Assembly: GCF_016903815.1 (NCBI RefSeq)
Contig: NZ_CP069973.1
Origin: Escherichia coli
GTDB taxonomy: Bacteria; Pseudomonadota; Gammaproteobacteria; Enterobacterales; Enterobacteriaceae
Length of the DNA stretch: 64,000 bases
Strand: one strand, 5' to 3'
In this document: positions 40,551 to 47,105 of the stretch, piece after piece
How positions within the stretch are numbered: position 1 is the stretch's first letter
Layout of the letters: each line of letters starts with the position of its first letter
The notes under the pieces: model-generated
The model's input: only the letters and a program-made list of their open reading frames with translations
Databases searched by the model: none
What the model was told of the DNA's origin: nothing
Program-made: the position numbers and the translations under genes

Positions 40551-41612
40551 TTAGTTATAGTTAATCTTAAAAAGCACCACTGTATCGAAGGGACCCGCTT
40601 CGATGGGGGTGCCGGGAATGGACGAAAGTTCAGCCGTATAGGTTTTTTCGTAGATCAGCATATCGCTGGTGAAATCAGCATATTCGCTGTATTTGTTGAA
40701 AGTATAGGGTGAAGAATTTTCATCCAGCAAACGTAGCTTCAGTCCATTACCAATCAGCAGTGCTTTATCCTCTTCAATCAATGTTTCTTCGGTATAAAAC
40801 GAAGAGCTGACCTTAAATCCGTCGGTGCACTGGTCATTTTGTGATTTTGTCGTCTTAATACTGAATGTTTTCGACATTGTGTGGCGGCGAATATCCAGCA
40901 GGTTAAATTTACCAAAATCAATCACCTGTGTTTCTGGTGAAATAGAAAAATTGACGCTGCAATCCAGTACACGAATGTTTTCCAGACCAGTAATATGGTA
41001 TTTCAGGTTTTGGGCGGTAGGGTCTTCGTTAACGCTACCGGCACCATCAAATTGCACGACGATGTAGTCGCTAAGCGTACTTTGATAATCATGCGGCGGT
41101 ATTTCGCGAATCTTAACGTATAACCGCATACGAGCAAGAAAGGTTCGCGACATGTGAATATTAGCGGGGTCACCCGAGCATATTTTGTTCTGCCAGCCCA
41201 TCGCGATAATCTGCTCAGGGGTATAAATGTTAATGTTCTTACTGTCGATACACTGGTTGGTGTCGATGCGGCTTTTCCCCAGACTGGCATCGTAATCGAC
41301 ACCATTGTATGTCACGCCGAGTTGATAATAACGATCCTGTACCCCCGGGTAGGGGTTTACCCATGCGTAGACATGTTCGCTTTCAAAGTTGCCGTTGGTA
41401 TTGTTGTCACAATAGACGGGAATTTTAATATCGTCAGATTCCCAGATCTTATCGCCGGGTTTGGCATTACCTGGCACAGCAAAGGGTTGAATCGCTTCCG
41501 ATTTTTCTACCGTTCCGCCGGAAGTACCAAAATAGCAGTTCAGCGCTAGCGCAGACTTCAATGGCAGAAATAACAGACAGATGACGAGCAACAATCCTTT
41601 GCCAGTACTCAT
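40551..41612 (-). CDS. ybgO: putative fimbrial adhesin/tip subunit YbgO
   Basis: Signal peptide [23 protein letters not shown]; last gene of the chaperone-usher cluster; start overlaps the ybgP stop (ATGA). Confidence 0.8.
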
Positions 41613-42340
41613 TTCTTCGCCTCCACTGCTTGTAAACGGCAATGTCCGTTGCAATTGAGCGTCGTCATGCGTAACGCGCCGTAATCATCCATATAACCGA
41701 GATAAAACTGACTGCCGCTATAACTTCCGGTGTTTGTAATTACTGTACTAAAAGGCGCAACCATCACGGTTTTGAAGCCCGGGAGAACACCTTGCTCATT
41801 TCGTCCCAGGTAGGCGATTGTCAGGTAATAGCCGGTCGGGTTTTTTAAGTTAAGTTGATTGCCCTGCTGGCTGACCTGTAACTGCAGTTCGACCTTTTCT
41901 CCTGCTTTCTTGCGTAATGCAGCCGGTCGCCAGAATACCTTGATACGACTCTGAATGGCGACTTGCAGAACGGCATGGTCGCTATTTTTTTCCGGGGCGG
42001 GAGGAATTTCACGCATATTGTAGAAAAATAGCGTTTCGCGATCGCCCGGTAATTTTGTGGTCGAGGCTTGCTTTACTATCCGTACCTGCGTTGTTGCTTT
42101 CGGTTCCAGACGTTGTATCGGTGGCAGGGCAACCAGAAGATCATCGTTTTTCTCCCCTTTTTCATTTTCGAGCCAGGAATAAGCGAGGTAGGGGAGTTTA
42201 TCGCTACGATTATCCACGCGCAGACTGGTAGCTTTATCATTAGCGTTAAACACAATACGAGTGCGATCGGGTTGTAGTGCAGCGTGGCTGCACAGACTGG
42301 CAACCAACAACAAAAGGGGTAGTCCTTTCATAAATGTCAT
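41609..42340 (-). CDS. ybgP: fimbrial periplasmic chaperone (PapD-like)
   Basis: 243 aa with signal peptide; chaperone position within the cluster. Confidence 0.85.
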
Positions 42341-42355
42341 TTTTCATTTCCTTAA

Positions 42356-44815
42356 TTAATGACAAGGTAAAATCAGGCGATTTGCGGTGTCTTCCATATG
42401 TTCAGGAAGATGGATCGAGCAACGCTGGCTATCACCCCAGATCACGGTAAATTGTTGATTTTCAGCGACTCCACTTAACCAGGCGTGTCCTTCCTCGCCA
42501 ACCATTCCCACGCTAATGCCGCTATCCTCCTGGCGGATATCCGCACCGAGGGGGGGGAGCTGACCGCTGGCGTTGCGAATGATGACGTTAACGTCTTTAC
42601 CGGAACGGGAAGCCAGCGATTTGTAACCTATCGCGCCTTCAATCCACGTTTCTTTGATAACGTTATCTGCCACTGTTACGCCGTCGGGTAAATCATTCAT
42701 GTTCACCGCCACGGTGGAAGGCTGGTAACTGGAAATCAACGGCACCACCGCAATGCCAAAATGGTTGGTGTAGTCGAGATTGCCCTGAACCGGAATATCT
42801 GCCACGCCATCGGTGCTGACCATCAGGCGTGGTTCATTGGTGGAGCTGCGACGATGGAACGCCGCACCATATTGGGTTGCTGTGAAAGAACCGCTCCAGC
42901 TGCTGCTGACGGAACTGTAATCATTGGCGGCATAGGTACCAGAAATATCCCACTCACCCGCTGAACTCAGGTGCTGATAGTTACCGCTCACCTGGGCTCC
43001 ATTATCCGGACGGTCGGATTGCAGTCCGGTAGACATGCCCCAGCTATTACGTTCATCTAACGTATCATTCCACGACATGCGGTGCGTGGTGCTGTGACTA
43101 CTGTTTTGCATGTCATAACCGACCCGCCCCCCATTACCGAAGGGGAGCGAAATCGACAGGTAAATCTGATTGTCGCGATCTTTATCTTCGTAATGGGTTG
43201 TATTGAATGATGTCGAGATCGAGATATCTCTCCAGTTACCAATATCAACATTAAAACCCGCCGTGATGTTGGCGGTCGTGGAGGCGTCTGCATTCCACCA
43301 GGTTTGATGCAGCAGGTTGGCGTAAAGATTGAGGTTTAGTGGGGTAATCGGTTGGCCCACGGATAAGCTGATCGTCTGTTTTTCGTCCTGCGCATCGTTG
43401 TCGTTGTATTTGTGATCCAGATAGTTGGCGTAGCTGTGAAAATGACGATCTGAGAAGCGATAAGCGGCGAGCGAAATCGTGCTGTTAGTGGCATCCACTT
43501 GTTTGCTGTAATTAAAGCGGTAACTTAAGCCCCGCTCGTCCTGCTGAGTATCAAACTGACTACTGGCCCAGGTGACATCAAACGACAATGCACCAAGCCA
43601 GAGCATATTTTGCCCGATACCCATTGCGGCTGAATGGTAGTCGTCACCCGAAATCAGCAGGCCGCCGTACAGTGAGGTATTTGACAGCATCCCCCAGGAA
43701 ACTTCATTGCTAAAAAAGGTTTCATTTTCAGTTTGATGAGACATGGAGGGCCGTGGCTGACCCGCGGCCAATTTATAGCGAACCTGTCCCTGGCGAGTCA
43801 GGAAGGGAGTCGATGCTGCCGAAACCTGGAAATTGTTCACCCGACCATCTTCTTCCGTCACTTTGACATCCAACGTACCCTGGACGGACTGATTAAGGTC
43901 ATCAATGATAAACGGACCTGGTGGGACTTTTTTCTGGTAAATAACTCGCCCTGAGTGACTCACGGTGACGGTGGCGTTGGTTTGTGCAATGCCGCTGATT
44001 TGTGGGGCGTAGCCGCGTAGCTCCCACGGTAACATCCGATCGTCACTTGCCAGTGCCGCGCCGGTATAAGAAAAGCCGTCGAAAATATTGGAACTGAAAT
44101 CCGTTTCACCAAGGGTTAATTTTGAACCTAATTGCGGTAATGGACGAAAAAGATAGGTGCGTGATATTTCGCCTGACTGTTCATGGTTATCATCGCTATC
44201 GGTCTGATTCAATTGGTAATCACTGCGTAAACGCCATGCTCCCGCGTTAATTCCGGCTGTTCCATAGGCGTTCAGGTTAGTGCTGTTGCTACCATCCTGT
44301 GGGCGGTAGCTGCTGGCAAACAGGTTGTAGTCCATCAGGACGCCGGCGACACCTTCTTTCCATGTTGAGGGGGGAGTCCAGTTATCTGAGTGCCACGCCA
44401 GCCAGGCTTGTGGAATAGTGATATTCAGTTGCTGGCTAGCCTGATCAAAAATGAAGAGAATTTCAGGCCGGGAGCTAAAATCGACGCACTGGTTTAACCG
44501 TGGTAACGACTGACGAACTTCAGGTTTTAAACCAAATTTATCTACCAGTAAATCATTAATACACGGAATGGTTTGGTCACCGTTCTTTTTCCAGTCAATT
44601 TTTTGTCCATTACTGATTTGGTTGTTATTTACTGCAACGCTAACAAAATATTCACCGGGAGCAATGCCCCCTTTTTCCTTTAATAATGAAATATCAATGC
44701 GATCTCGCATCGATTTATCGAGGACATTCAGGTTGAATTCGACCGCCAATGCGGAAGGTATCGCCATGACCAGGCAGGATATAAAAGAGAGTCGATAAAT
44801 ATTCACGGTGTCCAT
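42356..44815 (-). CDS. ybgQ: fimbrial outer-membrane usher
   Basis: About 819 aa usher-sized protein with an N-terminal signal peptide (MDTVNIYRLSFISCLVMAIPSALA); start chosen at the ATG at 44815, though the open frame extends to 44857. Confidence 0.85.
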   Translation of the reverse strand: MDTVNIYRLSFISCLVMAIPSALAVEFNLNVLDKSMRDRIDISLLKEKGGIAPGEYFVSVAVNNNQISNGQKIDWKKNGDQTIPCINDLLVDKFGLKPEVRQSLPRLNQCVDFSSRPEILFIFDQASQQLNITIPQAWLAWHSDNWTPPSTWKEGVAGVLMDYNLFASSYRPQDGSNSTNLNAYGTAGINAGAWRLRSDYQLNQTDSDDNHEQSGEISRTYLFRPLPQLGSKLTLGETDFSSNIFDGFSYTGAALASDDRMLPWELRGYAPQISGIAQTNATVTVSHSGRVIYQKKVPPGPFIIDDLNQSVQGTLDVKVTEEDGRVNNFQVSAASTPFLTRQGQVRYKLAAGQPRPSMSHQTENETFFSNEVSWGMLSNTSLYGGLLISGDDYHSAAMGIGQNMLWLGALSFDVTWASSQFDTQQDERGLSYRFNYSKQVDATNSTISLAAYRFSDRHFHSYANYLDHKYNDNDAQDEKQTISLSVGQPITPLNLNLYANLLHQTWWNADASTTANITAGFNVDIGNWRDISISTSFNTTHYEDKDRDNQIYLSISLPFGNGGRVGYDMQNSSHSTTHRMSWNDTLDERNSWGMSTGLQSDRPDNGAQVSGNYQHLSSAGEWDISGTYAANDYSSVSSSWSGSFTATQYGAAFHRRSSTNEPRLMVSTDGVADIPVQGNLDYTNHFGIAVVPLISSYQPSTVAVNMNDLPDGVTVADNVIKETWIEGAIGYKSLASRSGKDVNVIIRNASGQLPPLGADIRQEDSGISVGMVGEEGHAWLSGVAENQQFTVIWGDSQRCSIHLPEHMEDTANRLILPCH

Positions 44816-44865
44816 ACCTGATAAATATTTGAAGAAAGGCGGCGATGACGCCGCCAAAGTGATAC

Positions 44866-45432
44866 TTATTTATAATCCAGTACGTAGGTCGCATTCGCCG
44901 TAACTGCGCCTGGTGTTACGGGCGTAGCCTGATCAATTTGTTCCATCCACGCAAAGAAATTTAACGTTTGTTCGCTGGAGGTTGGTGCCAGGTCGATATC
45001 TGGAGTAGCGGTGCCTAAAACGATATTGCTTTGATCTTTATTCATTAAACGCACGCCGACACCGGTCGCTTCACCCGTGCTGGTGTTGTTGAGAATCGGA
45101 TCTGCGCCGGTGGTTTTCGCTGAGCTGTCAAAGGTGACTGCAACTTTAGAAATCTTGCCGCCGGAACCGTTGTTGGAGTTTTCCAGATCGCAGTTGACTA
45201 AGCGCAGGTCGACAGCAACGGCATCGCTGTGATGCGACTGATTAATGTGGCTGGTGGTCACCTGACCGAGTTCAACCTCTTTATCAATATCATCCTGATG
45301 TATTTCACACGGTGCTTCAATAACTTCACCTTTAAAGTGAATTTCACCGGATCCTTCATCAGCCGCATAAACAGGTGCAGTGAACAGCAGAGATACGGCC
45401 AGTGCGGCCAATGTTTTTTGTCCTTTAAACAT
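44866..45432 (-). CDS. ybgD: fimbrial major subunit
   Basis: 188 aa from MFKGQKTLAALAVSLLFTAPVYA... (signal peptide), with SD aagga 8 nt upstream; first gene of the ybgDQPO cluster. Confidence 0.85.
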   Translation of the reverse strand: MFKGQKTLAALAVSLLFTAPVYAADEGSGEIHFKGEVIEAPCEIHQDDIDKEVELGQVTTSHINQSHHSDAVAVDLRLVNCDLENSNNGSGGKISKVAVTFDSSAKTTGADPILNNTSTGEATGVGVRLMNKDQSNIVLGTATPDIDLAPTSSEQTLNFFAWMEQIDQATPVTPGAVTANATYVLDYK

Positions 45433-45762
45433 AGCTGAGTCCTTTAAATAATGAGATAGAGTGTTGCGAGGCAAGAATATATTAACTGACAGTTGAATGT
45501 ATTTGGTTTTATTTAACAATATTAAAAAGCTTGTTATAGAAAGAATGGAATAATTGAGTGCATAAATTTATTGTTTAATGAGATGAAAGATGGGGTGGGA
45601 TGGATATGCATAATTTTCATTGGGTTAACAATGCTACCGGCAGGAAAGTATAAAAATAAACTTATCATTCTGCTCAGTATGTGACTTGTCACATTTTTTC
45701 ATCTTATTAATGGGTATTTGCATCTGGTTTAATTTTTACAATTTATTATGTTCAGCCATATA

Positions 45763-45800
45763 AAAAAGAACCCGCTCTATTAAAGGCGGGTCCGGAAAGT
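45763..45800 (-). terminator. gltA terminator
   Basis: Hairpin gaacccgc...gcgggtcc followed on the minus strand by a T-run. Confidence 0.6.
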
Positions 45801-45821
45801 AAACGGCTTAGCAATCAACCA

Positions 45822-47105
45822 TTAACGCTTAATGTCGCTTTTAAAGTCGCGTTTTTCATATCCTGTATACAGTTGACGCGGACGGGCAATCTTCATACCG
45901 TCACTGTGCATTTCGCTCCAGTGGGCGATCCAGCCAACGGTACGTGCCATAGCGAAGATCACGGTGAACATAGAAGACGGAATACCCATCGCTTTCAGGA
46001 TGATACCAGAGTAGAAATCGACGTTCGGGTAGAGTTTCTTCTCGATAAAGTACGGGTCGTTCAGCGCGATGTTTTCCAGCTCCATAGCCACTTCCAGCAG
46101 GTCATCTTTGGTACCCAGCTCTTTCAGCACTTCATGGCAGGTTTCACGCATTACGGTGGCGCGCGGGTCGTAATTTTTGTACACGCGGTGCCCGAAGCCC
46201 ATCAGGCGGAAAGAGTCATTTTTGTCTTTCGCACGACGAACAAATTCCGGAATGTGTTTAACGGAGCTGATTTCTTCCAGCATTTTCAGCGCCGCTTCGT
46301 TAGCACCACCGTGCGCAGGTCCCCACAGTGAAGCAATACCTGCTGCGATACAGGCAAACGGGTTCGCCCCCGAAGAGCCAGCGGTACGCACGGTGGAGGT
46401 GGAGGCGTTCTGTTCATGGTCAGCGTGCAGGATCAAAATACGGTCCATAGCACGTTCCAGAATCGGATTAACTTCATACGGTTCGCACGGCGTGGAGAAC
46501 ATCATATTCAGGAAGTTACCAGCATAGGAGAGATCGTTGCGCGGGTAAACAAATGGCTGACCAATGGAATACTTGTAACACATCGCGGCCATGGTCGGCA
46601 TTTTCGACAGCAGGCGGAACGCGGCAATTTCACGATGACGAGGATTGTTAACATCCAGCGAGTCGTGATAGAACGCCGCCAGCGCGCCGGTAATACCACA
46701 CATGACTGCCATTGGATGCGAGTCGCGACGGAAAGCATGGAACAGACGGGTAATCTGCTCGTGGATCATGGTATGACGGGTCACCGTAGTTTTAAATTCG
46801 TCATACTGTTCCTGCGTCGGTTTTTCACCATTCAGCAGGATGTAACAAACTTCCAGGTAGTTAGAATCGGTCGCCAGCTGATCGATCGGGAAACCGCGGT
46901 GCAGCAAAATACCTTCATCACCATCAATAAAAGTAATTTTAGATTCGCAGGATGCGGTTGAAGTGAAGCCTGGGTCAAAGGTGAACACACCTTTTGAACC
47001 GAGAGTACGGATATCAATAACATCTTGACCCAGCGTGCCTTTCAGCACATCCAGTTCAACAGCTGTGTCCCCGTTGAGGGTGAGTTTTGCTTTTGTATCA
47101 GCCAT
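45822..47105 (-). CDS. gltA: citrate synthase
   Basis: 427 aa [35 protein letters not shown]...; recognised as GltA. Confidence 0.95.

Follow-up and report, generated by a model that had tools for sequence, protein, structure and literature searches.

The interval between abrB and gltA in the window, as we call the whole 64-kb stretch of Escherichia coli DNA analyzed here, is occupied by an intact cluster orthologous to ybgDQPO (Ybg) of E. coli K-12, with which it agrees in its four genes, their order, and the chromosomal site (Table 1). The DNA itself does not come from K-12. The four open reading frames (ybgO, ybgP, ybgQ, and ybgD) are all on the minus strand, run without interruption, and have full-length Pfam matches, and the position of the locus is fixed by its conserved upstream neighbor, gltA. 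The Usher domain of YbgQ scored 625 bits and YbgD matched the Fimbrial domain (PF00419) with 105 bits; the C-terminal Fimbrial domain of YbgO (residues 218 to 353) reached 24 bits, just below the Pfam cutoff of 25.6, and the N-terminal 217 residues of this protein had no Pfam match. Protein identity to K-12 was 97% for YbgO, 94% for YbgQ, and 79% for YbgD, although residues 1 to 45 of YbgD, including a hydrophobic, signal-like N terminus (MFKGQKTLAALAVSLLFTAPVYA), are identical in both. Along the ybgD gene, nucleotide identity to K-12 ranged from 65 to 85%. The identical locus of strain 7/2 is labeled in RefSeq as ybgO, ybgP, ybgQ, and a fimbrial protein without a gene name. In this arrangement, YbgD would act as the major subunit, YbgQ as the usher, YbgP as the chaperone, and YbgO as a large terminal subunit. 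The uninterrupted frames, the Pfam domains, and the identity to K-12 YbgO, YbgQ, and YbgD bear out the original prediction of an intact ybgDQPO chaperone-usher cluster, which here adjoins gltA.

Table 1. Coordinates of the genes and sequence elements at the ybg locus of the window
Feature	Coordinates	Strand	Description
ybgO	40551..41612	-	353 aa, putative tip adhesin or minor subunit; uninterrupted ORF
ybgP	41609..42340	-	243 aa, predicted periplasmic PapD-like chaperone; PapD_N and PapD_C domains
ybgQ	42356..44815	-	819 aa, predicted outer-membrane usher; PapC_N, Usher, and PapC_C domains
GC-rich hairpin	44838..44855	-	GGCGGCG-N4-CGCCGCC followed by UUUCUU; in the ybgD-ybgQ gap
ybgD	44866..45432	-	188 aa, predicted major fimbrial subunit, divergent allele; Fimbrial domain; start codon 45430-45432
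ybgD-gltA spacer	45433..45821	.	AT-rich promoter region; three haplotypes, window is "W-type"
14-nt inverted repeat	45575..45710	.	Arms 45575-45588 and 45697-45710; 13/14 complementary; encloses 108 nt including the reported palindrome
Sigma-70-like match	45664..45692	-	GTGACA-17-AATGAT; reads toward ybgD; -35 hexamer inside the inverted repeat
Reported "palindrome"	45679..45694	.	Imperfect 7+2+7 inverted repeat, ATGTGAC-TT-GTCACAT
Degenerate counterpart of the K-12 promoter	45727..45754	-	TGAACA-16-TTAAAC, aligned to K-12 TAAACA-16-TAAAAT
gltA intrinsic terminator	45762..45793	-	GC-rich hairpin followed by a U-run; -15.6 kcal/mol, z = -2.7
gltA	45822..47105	-	Citrate synthase; conserved upstream neighbor, fixes the locus

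Nothing in the operon itself is new: the gene cluster for the Ybg fimbria, silent under normal conditions, was known before, and its cryptic, H-NS-silenced status and frequent decay have been published. The chaperone-usher operon encoding the Ybg fimbriae has been classed as "core-associated" and cryptic (Korea et al. 2010, as cited in PMC3559732; Wurpel et al. 2013), and PMC3559732 describes it as H-NS repressed and often disrupted. We also found the locus to be often decayed among genomes, which fits weak constraint. The junctions within the cluster had been proposed to be translationally coupled, and this holds for ybgP/ybgO, where the ybgP stop codon lies over the ybgO start in a 4-bp overlap (ATGA). 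It does not extend to the other two junctions, neither of which overlaps: ybgQ and ybgP are separated by 15 nt, and ybgD and ybgQ by 50 nt that hold a strong GC hairpin (see below).

The element that had drawn attention to this region is the 16-mer ATGTGACTTGTCACAT. It lies 247 to 262 nt upstream of the ybgD start codon, in DNA with a GC content of 29% (positions 45450 to 45749) versus ca. 50% in the flanks, in agreement with the original description of a site some 250 bp upstream of ybgD within an AT-rich spacer. The same description called it a perfect 16-bp palindrome, which it is not. Its reverse complement, ATGTGACAAGTCACAT, matches it at 14 of 16 positions and differs at the two central bases, and it is therefore an inverted repeat with 7-bp arms around a nonsymmetric TT.

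An inverted repeat of this kind is statistically ordinary in its context. When the 389-bp spacer was shuffled with its dinucleotide composition preserved, one or more repeats with arms of 7 bp or longer and a gap of 0 to 4 turned up in 23% of the shuffled sequences, and an exact 7-2-7 repeat in 5.7%. Across the window, we observed seven 7-2-7 inverted repeats against ca. 3.9 expected, and 42 when gaps of 0 to 4 were allowed. No second copy with up to two mismatches was found anywhere in the 64 kb. Folded as a hairpin, the repeat is weak on the two strands (-4.4 and -4.9 kcal/mol, with z = -0.8 and -1.3), and the terminator scan called none here, so that an intrinsic terminator or stable hairpin at this position was rejected. 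A search of positions 45300 to 45950 against Rfam returned nothing beyond noise at an E value of 0.3. The endpoint of the deletion seen in B2/UTI89 falls within the final 2 bp of the repeat; a hairpin-promoted deletion was considered and set aside, as the deletion seems to have arisen only once, with 1 nt of microhomology, and may be a coincidence.

The spacer between ybgD and gltA exists in E. coli in three haplotypes with a mutual identity of 56 to 68%, embedded in flanking DNA that is 95 to 100% identical. The version in the window, designated W-type, is 100% identical to that of strain 7/2, ca. 65% identical to the K-12 spacer, and 56 to 68% identical to the third type. The difference from K-12 involves the ybgD coding sequence together with the whole spacer, which in the window belong to another haplotype with ca. 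65% nucleotide identity. About a quarter of the complete E. coli genomes carry the W-type, ca. 940 the K-12-type, and ca. 1,480 the third type. In all three haplotypes, the spacer is colinear and of nearly the same length (388 to 390 bp), which rules out the insertion of a mobile element.

The repeat follows this division strictly. Of the 5,426 complete genomes, 769 carry it intact, all with the W-type haplotype, and in 549 further genomes, also W-type, one arm is broken (GTCtCAT) by an A-to-T change at position 45691. The homologous position reads ATTTGAGCTGTTCTAT in K-12 and ATTTATACCGATATAT in the third type, and the repeat is absent from the spacers of both types as well as from the E69-type, E. 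whittamii, and E1V33 alleles. By this comparison of alleles, the repeat is not conserved at the orthologous promoter. Since it is confined to one of three versions of the promoter, it is most likely ordinary sequence and not the docking site of a regulator.

Recombination has separated the histories of the gene and of its promoter region. A breakpoint can be placed at the start of ybgD, where the gene of 98E11 is 100% identical to that of NT1F25 and their spacers are only 57 to 68% identical. Identical ybgD coding sequences thus occur with different spacers, and this incongruence, together with the contrast between divergent spacers and nearly identical flanks, is what characterizes a switched intergenic region. 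Regions of this type are on record for E. coli, also under the name of horizontal regulatory transfer (Oren et al. 2014, as described in PMC5890482), and the ybg spacers resemble them in being highly divergent between the same conserved genes; at ybg, however, the gene for the major subunit is also hypervariable. The spacer has probably been swapped by recombination across E. coli, giving rise to at least three very different haplotypes.

The haplotypes also differ in their promoter-like sequences. The K-12 ybgD promoter, TAAACA-16-TAAAAT, is included in the list of RpoD constitutive promoters (Shimada et al. 2014, PMC3946193). Our promoter scan called this K-12-type promoter both in K-12 itself and in the third haplotype. 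It did not call it in the window, where the published hexamers are degenerate and where, in turn, the inverted repeat missing from K-12 is found. Within positions 45300 to 45900, the only match reading toward ybgD was GTGACA-17-AATGAT, which agrees with the consensus at 9 of 12 positions and takes its -35 hexamer (a 5/6 match) from one arm of the repeat on the ybgD-sense strand; the number of promoter-like matches was no higher than in shuffled sequences. Because the K-12 promoter has decayed to TGAACA-16-TTAAAC in the W-type, GTGACA may serve there as a promoter element. This placement, 17 bp before AATGAT, would be the sole plausible contribution of the repeat, and an incidental one.

In K-12, the ybgD/gltA spacer is a "promoter island" bound by H-NS (Panyukov and Ozoline 2013, PMC3661553). 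The window resembles it in intergenic position and in AT richness (29% GC), although the H-NS occupancy and promoter data concern the K-12 sequence. The operon would be read from this AT-rich spacer, bound and silenced by H-NS in K-12, and the W-type haplotype may be silenced in the same way. A search for the high-affinity H-NS motif was uninformative, as matches were everywhere. The spacer contains no GATC (Dam) sites, and phase variation through Dam was discarded on this basis. At the far end of the spacer lies the intrinsic terminator of gltA; in K-12 and 98E11, the scan likewise called a terminator at the equivalent hairpin.

We consider it likely that the cluster is simply the orthologue of K-12 ybgDQPO and that the repeat is an incidental sequence, without a dedicated binding protein, in a promoter region that is AT-rich, H-NS silenced, and swapped by recombination. 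The main competing explanation is the one put forward originally, that the repeat is an operator for a dimeric regulator, be it CRP, a LacI/GalR-type protein, or another helix-turn-helix protein, controlling ybgD in W-type strains. It has several points in its favor. The two 7-bp arms contain TGTGA and TCACA cores, which are classic recognition pentamers, and the repeat overlaps the only promoter-like match toward ybgD, a typical position for a repressor. Its TGTGA-N4-TCACA spacing is, moreover, that of the symmetric lac operator (TGTGAGCGCTCACA), in which the same half-sites flank GCGC. However, the operators of the LacI/GalR family are palindromes of 14 to 16 bp with CG typically at the center, and the center of the repeat is CT|TG, with the nonsymmetric TT.

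The geometry is also wrong for CRP, which requires TGTGA-N6-TCACA and recognizes the same pentamers at a spacing 2 bp longer than that of the repeat. In the N6 register, the repeat has two mismatches in the core, and sites of such quality number 23 in the window versus 26 expected, so that a CRP site was rejected. To this must be added that repeats as good or better appear in 23% of the spacer shuffles, that neither the other two haplotypes nor other Escherichia carry the element, that one of its arms is mutated in 549 genomes, and that the 64 kb hold a single copy. The annotation of the identical locus in strain 7/2 shows no regulator gene within the cluster or beside it, and our literature search found no paper tying ybgD to a specific regulator site. 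Since regulatory regions can be rewired, the lack of conservation would still be compatible with a site specific to one haplotype. Overall, the proposed operator fails in conservation, in enrichment, and in geometry, and we regard it as unlikely.

A more elaborate version, in which the K-12-type promoter was lost from the W-type and a new one arose with its -35 hexamer inside the TGTGA-N4-TCACA repeat, open to occupation by a dimeric regulator (LacI-like or other) and thus to strain-specific control, seems to us very unlikely. If it were true, the Ybg fimbriae would be under strain-specific, signal-responsive control, and the A-to-T arm variant would represent a natural regulatory allele.

The repeat is enclosed by a larger structure, since 14-nt arms on both sides of it form an inverted repeat of which a comparable example was found in only 2.7% of the shuffles. 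On the ybgD-sense strand, the segment 45565 to 45720, with boundaries picked after the repeat had been seen, folds at -27.3 kcal/mol (z = -3.8), and one of 200 shuffles folds as well; the palindrome forms one of its branches. Substitutions at positions 45698 and 45702 of the outer stem in other W-type strains would keep the pairing as G-U on the ybgD-sense RNA. One could see in the repeat an RNA hairpin that belongs to a structured 5' leader on the W-type ybgD mRNA, with the 14-nt arms closing the structure, and that affects stability or translation. Against this, the opposite strand folds about as well (z = -2.8), as expected from the symmetry of DNA, and the palindrome hairpin alone is weak (-4.9 kcal/mol, z = -1.3), is broken in 549 genomes, and has no Rfam match. 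The counterpart regions of K-12 and of the third type showed no notable fold (z = -0.8 and -1.2), which also disposes of a structured leader common to all haplotypes. Furthermore, a transcript started at the GTGACA promoter would lack the 5' half of this structure. Such a leader is, in our view, quite unlikely.

Less probable still is that the hairpin, followed on the plus strand by a run of six T (ATGTGACTTGTCACATTTTTT), works as an intrinsic terminator, if a weak one, of a transcript that runs antisense to the ybgD leader. A promoter-like match on the plus strand (TTTAAA-17-AATAAT, positions 45424 to 45452) could provide the start of such a transcript, but these matches are not above the level of the shuffles, T-runs are expected at 29% GC, and the stem has six usable pairs, two of them G-C (-4.4 kcal/mol, z = -0.8), at a place where the terminator scan calls nothing. 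Finally, the 136-bp unit bounded by the 14-nt repeats, with 13 of 14 positions paired around 108 nt and a promoter-like site facing ybgD, recalls a fimS-like invertible promoter switch, but its constructed inverted form appeared in none of the 5,426 complete genomes (the forward form is in ca. 1,300) and the annotation of the 14 kb around the identical locus in strain 7/2 lists no recombinase gene, so that this idea is effectively refuted at the assembly level.

With the repeat most probably incidental, the value of the locus is modest and lies in the Ybg promoter and the major-subunit gene, which come in three haplotypes that recombine and are deeply divergent. What is found on ybg regulation in K-12 is therefore not transferable to most E. 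coli, and differences in ybg expression between strains may trace to the promoter haplotype and not to a shared operator.

The hairpin located directly 3' of ybgD folds at -17.3 kcal/mol (z = -6.5), a value that none of 200 shuffles attained. Fimbrial operons such as pap and fim have intercistronic stem-loops after the major-subunit gene, and the ybg hairpin, GC-rich and with a U-rich tail, resembles them. The E. whittamii sequence gave no alignment across this stretch; in most of the alleles compared the hairpin is conserved, with the GGCGGC/GCCGCC stem kept in the window, 98E11, D2, E69, and E1V33 and six of the seven stem pairs in K-12. The hairpin probably serves as an attenuator between the two cistrons or as an mRNA stabilizer.

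The cluster and the features around it are listed in the table below. RefSeq uses the names ybgO, ybgP, and ybgQ in the locus of E. coli strain 7/2, which matches the window at 100% identity across the ybgD-gltA spacer, and protein identity to K-12 is 97% for YbgO, 94% for YbgQ, and 79% for YbgD, with divergence between YbgD alleles beginning only past residue 45. These comparisons make the cluster an intact Ybg orthologue in a window that is not itself K-12. At the gene level the original prediction of an intact four-gene ybgDQPO cluster was correct and already known, and its description as normally cryptic matches the account in the text on Ybg of PMC3559732, where it is core associated, cryptic, H-NS repressed, and often disrupted. 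The junctions, said to be translationally coupled, mostly are not, since only ybgP/ybgO overlaps (4 bp, ATGA), with gaps of 15 nt at ybgQ/ybgP and 50 nt at ybgD/ybgQ, the latter containing a strong GC hairpin with a U-rich tail (-17.3 kcal/mol, z = -6.5). E69, E1V33, and the remaining E. coli alleles in the comparison preserve its stem, K-12 with 6/7 pairs, while E. whittamii gave no alignment over it. This hairpin is probably an attenuator or stabiliser governing how much subunit is made relative to the assembly machinery.

Features of the ybg locus (window coordinates unless another sequence is named)
Feature	Coordinates	Strand	Details
ybgO	40551-41612	-	uninterrupted; weak C-terminal pilin domain (Pfam)
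ybgP	41609-42340	-	uninterrupted; PapD-type chaperone (Pfam)
ybgQ	42356-44815	-	uninterrupted; complete usher (Pfam PapC_N, Usher, PapC_C)
ybgD-ybgQ gap	44816-44865		50 nt
GC hairpin	44838-44855	-	GGCGGCG-N4-CGCCGCC then UUUCUU; in the gap, directly 3' of ybgD
ybgD	44866-45432	-	uninterrupted; Pfam Fimbrial major subunit
10-nt direct repeat	45420-45429 and 45439-45448		exact; GTCCTTTAAA
14-nt inverted repeat	45575-45588 and 45697-45710		13/14 complementary; encloses 108 nt including the 16-mer
Promoter-like match	45692-45664		GTGACA-17-AATGAT; facing ybgD; only such match in W-type
16-mer inverted repeat	45679-45694		ATGTGACTTGTCACAT
W-type equivalent of K-12 promoter	45754-45727		TGAACA-16-TTAAAC
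gltA	45822-47105		upstream of the 16-mer
IS1 in ybgQ	4570-5267 of L005 (NT1F25)
IS1 in ybgO	1670-2367 of L008 (strain 102651)
IS1 replacing ybgD-ybgP	5788-6485 of L011 (RM10740)		IS1-associated deletion

The 16-mer ATGTGACTTGTCACAT (reverse complement ATGTGACAAGTCACAT) had been taken for a perfect palindrome, but it matches itself at only 14 of 16 positions and is therefore an inverted repeat with 7-bp arms and a nonsymmetric TT centre. Its predicted setting held, 247 to 262 nt upstream of the ybgD ATG in an AT-rich spacer (29% GC around the repeat). It is no more than chance would give. The 64-kb window has 42 inverted repeats with gaps of 0 to 4 and seven of the 7-2-7 form, versus ca. 3.9 expected. 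When the 389-bp spacer was shuffled with its dinucleotides preserved, 23% of the shuffles had one or more repeats with arms of ≥7 and a gap of 0 to 4, and 5.7% had an exact 7-2-7. No second copy with ≤2 mismatches was found in the 64 kb. As RNA or DNA, the repeat forms a weak hairpin (-4.4 and -4.9 kcal/mol; z = -0.8 and -1.3), called neither by the terminator scan nor by Rfam. CRP recognizes TGTGA-N6-TCACA, whereas the pentamers here are N4 apart; read in the N6 register, the repeat has two core mismatches, and 23 sites this good occur in the window versus 26 expected. The symmetric lac operator shares the N4 spacing but has a CG centre instead of TT.

The decisive evidence on the repeat is its conservation. 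Window and K-12 are 97 to 100% identical in abrB, nei, gltA, and sdh but only ca. 65% from mid-ybgD to the gltA stop codon. By aligning eight E. coli spacers we defined the W-type, K-12-type, and third-type haplotypes, with 56 to 68% spacer identity between them versus 95 to 100% in the flanks; the most divergent part is the middle (56 to 66%), where the repeat lies. Among the W-type spacers, the repeat is intact in the window, NT1F25, and 102651, and one arm is broken (GTCtCAT) in D2 and PK5074; at the homologous position K-12-type has ATTTGAGCTGTTCTAT and the third type (98E11 and ECCRA-119) ATTTATACCGATATAT. Of 5,426 complete genomes, 1,326 carry the full-length W-type spacer; an intact W-type repeat, scored by an exact 30-mer that ends with it, occurs in 769 and the broken-arm W-type variant in 549, while about 940 have the K-12-type and about 1,480 the third type. 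The repeat was also absent at the aligned position in the ybgD relatives from the species-representative collection (E69-type E. coli, E. whittamii, and Escherichia sp. E1V33). What had been proposed as an operator for a dimeric regulator is an inverted repeat that is imperfect, at chance level, and limited to one haplotype.

Over ybgD and the spacer together (44866-45821), comparison with K-12 and sequences L005 to L010 gave at least three hyperdivergent E. coli haplotypes. The ybgD coding sequences of 98E11 and NT1F25 are 100% identical, and their spacers only 57 to 68%. Because identical coding sequence pairs with different spacers, the alignments place a recombination breakpoint at the ybgD start, the same pattern as that of the switched intergenic regions of E. 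coli in PMC5890482.

In K-12 this spacer is an H-NS-bound “promoter island” (PMC3661553) and contains TAAACA-16-TAAAAT, published as a constitutive RpoD promoter flagged for H-NS (PMC3946193). Our promoter scan found this site in K-12 and the third type; in the W-type equivalent the call is lost. The -35 hexamer of the single W-type match (GTGACA) is the inner portion of one repeat arm, and a natural variant at 45691 turns it into GAGACA. Promoter-like consensus matches do not exceed shuffles, so GTGACA-17-AATGAT is a putative W-type promoter, proposed from its consensus match. The most plausible significance of the repeat is that one arm would incidentally provide a -35-like hexamer within a recombination-swapped, H-NS-type promoter region. 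Further downstream, the copies of the direct repeat (UUUAAAGGAC on the mRNA strand) are the Shine-Dalgarno region and the 10 nt directly after the ybgD AUG; the AAGGA element of the upstream copy is present in all aligned alleles.

The outer 14-nt inverted repeat is confined to the W-type haplotype, and 2.7% of shuffles had a comparable one. The unit within it folds on both strands (z = -3.8 for the ybgD-sense strand, -2.8 for the opposite one). A conserved leader structure was ruled out because the K-12 and third-type counterparts do not fold. The inverted form occurred in 0 of 5,426 genomes, which excludes a fimS-like switch at the level of assemblies; no recombinase gene was found near the unit.

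The locus is also decaying. B2 strains such as UTI89 have a deletion of 40945-45692 (junction 40944/45693, at ca. 8001 of L002) that fuses what is left of ybgO to the final two bases of the 16-mer repeat at 1 nt of microhomology, and it appears common to several hundred genomes. This endpoint could be a coincidence or a hairpin-associated breakpoint. WB61 (L003) lacks 40602-45749 (junction 40601/45750). UTI89 and WB61 lost the cluster by two independent illegitimate deletions, and IS1 inactivated it independently in NT1F25, 102651, and RM10740. Such decay is in line with published accounts and with a locus under weak selective constraint. E. coli ybgD DNA also appeared in two unrelated assemblies, a MAG labelled Collinsella sp. 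(L015), near-identical to K-12 upstream of ybgD, and a 309-bp contig of Alkalicoccobacillus porphyridii (L017), most likely by contamination of the public records.
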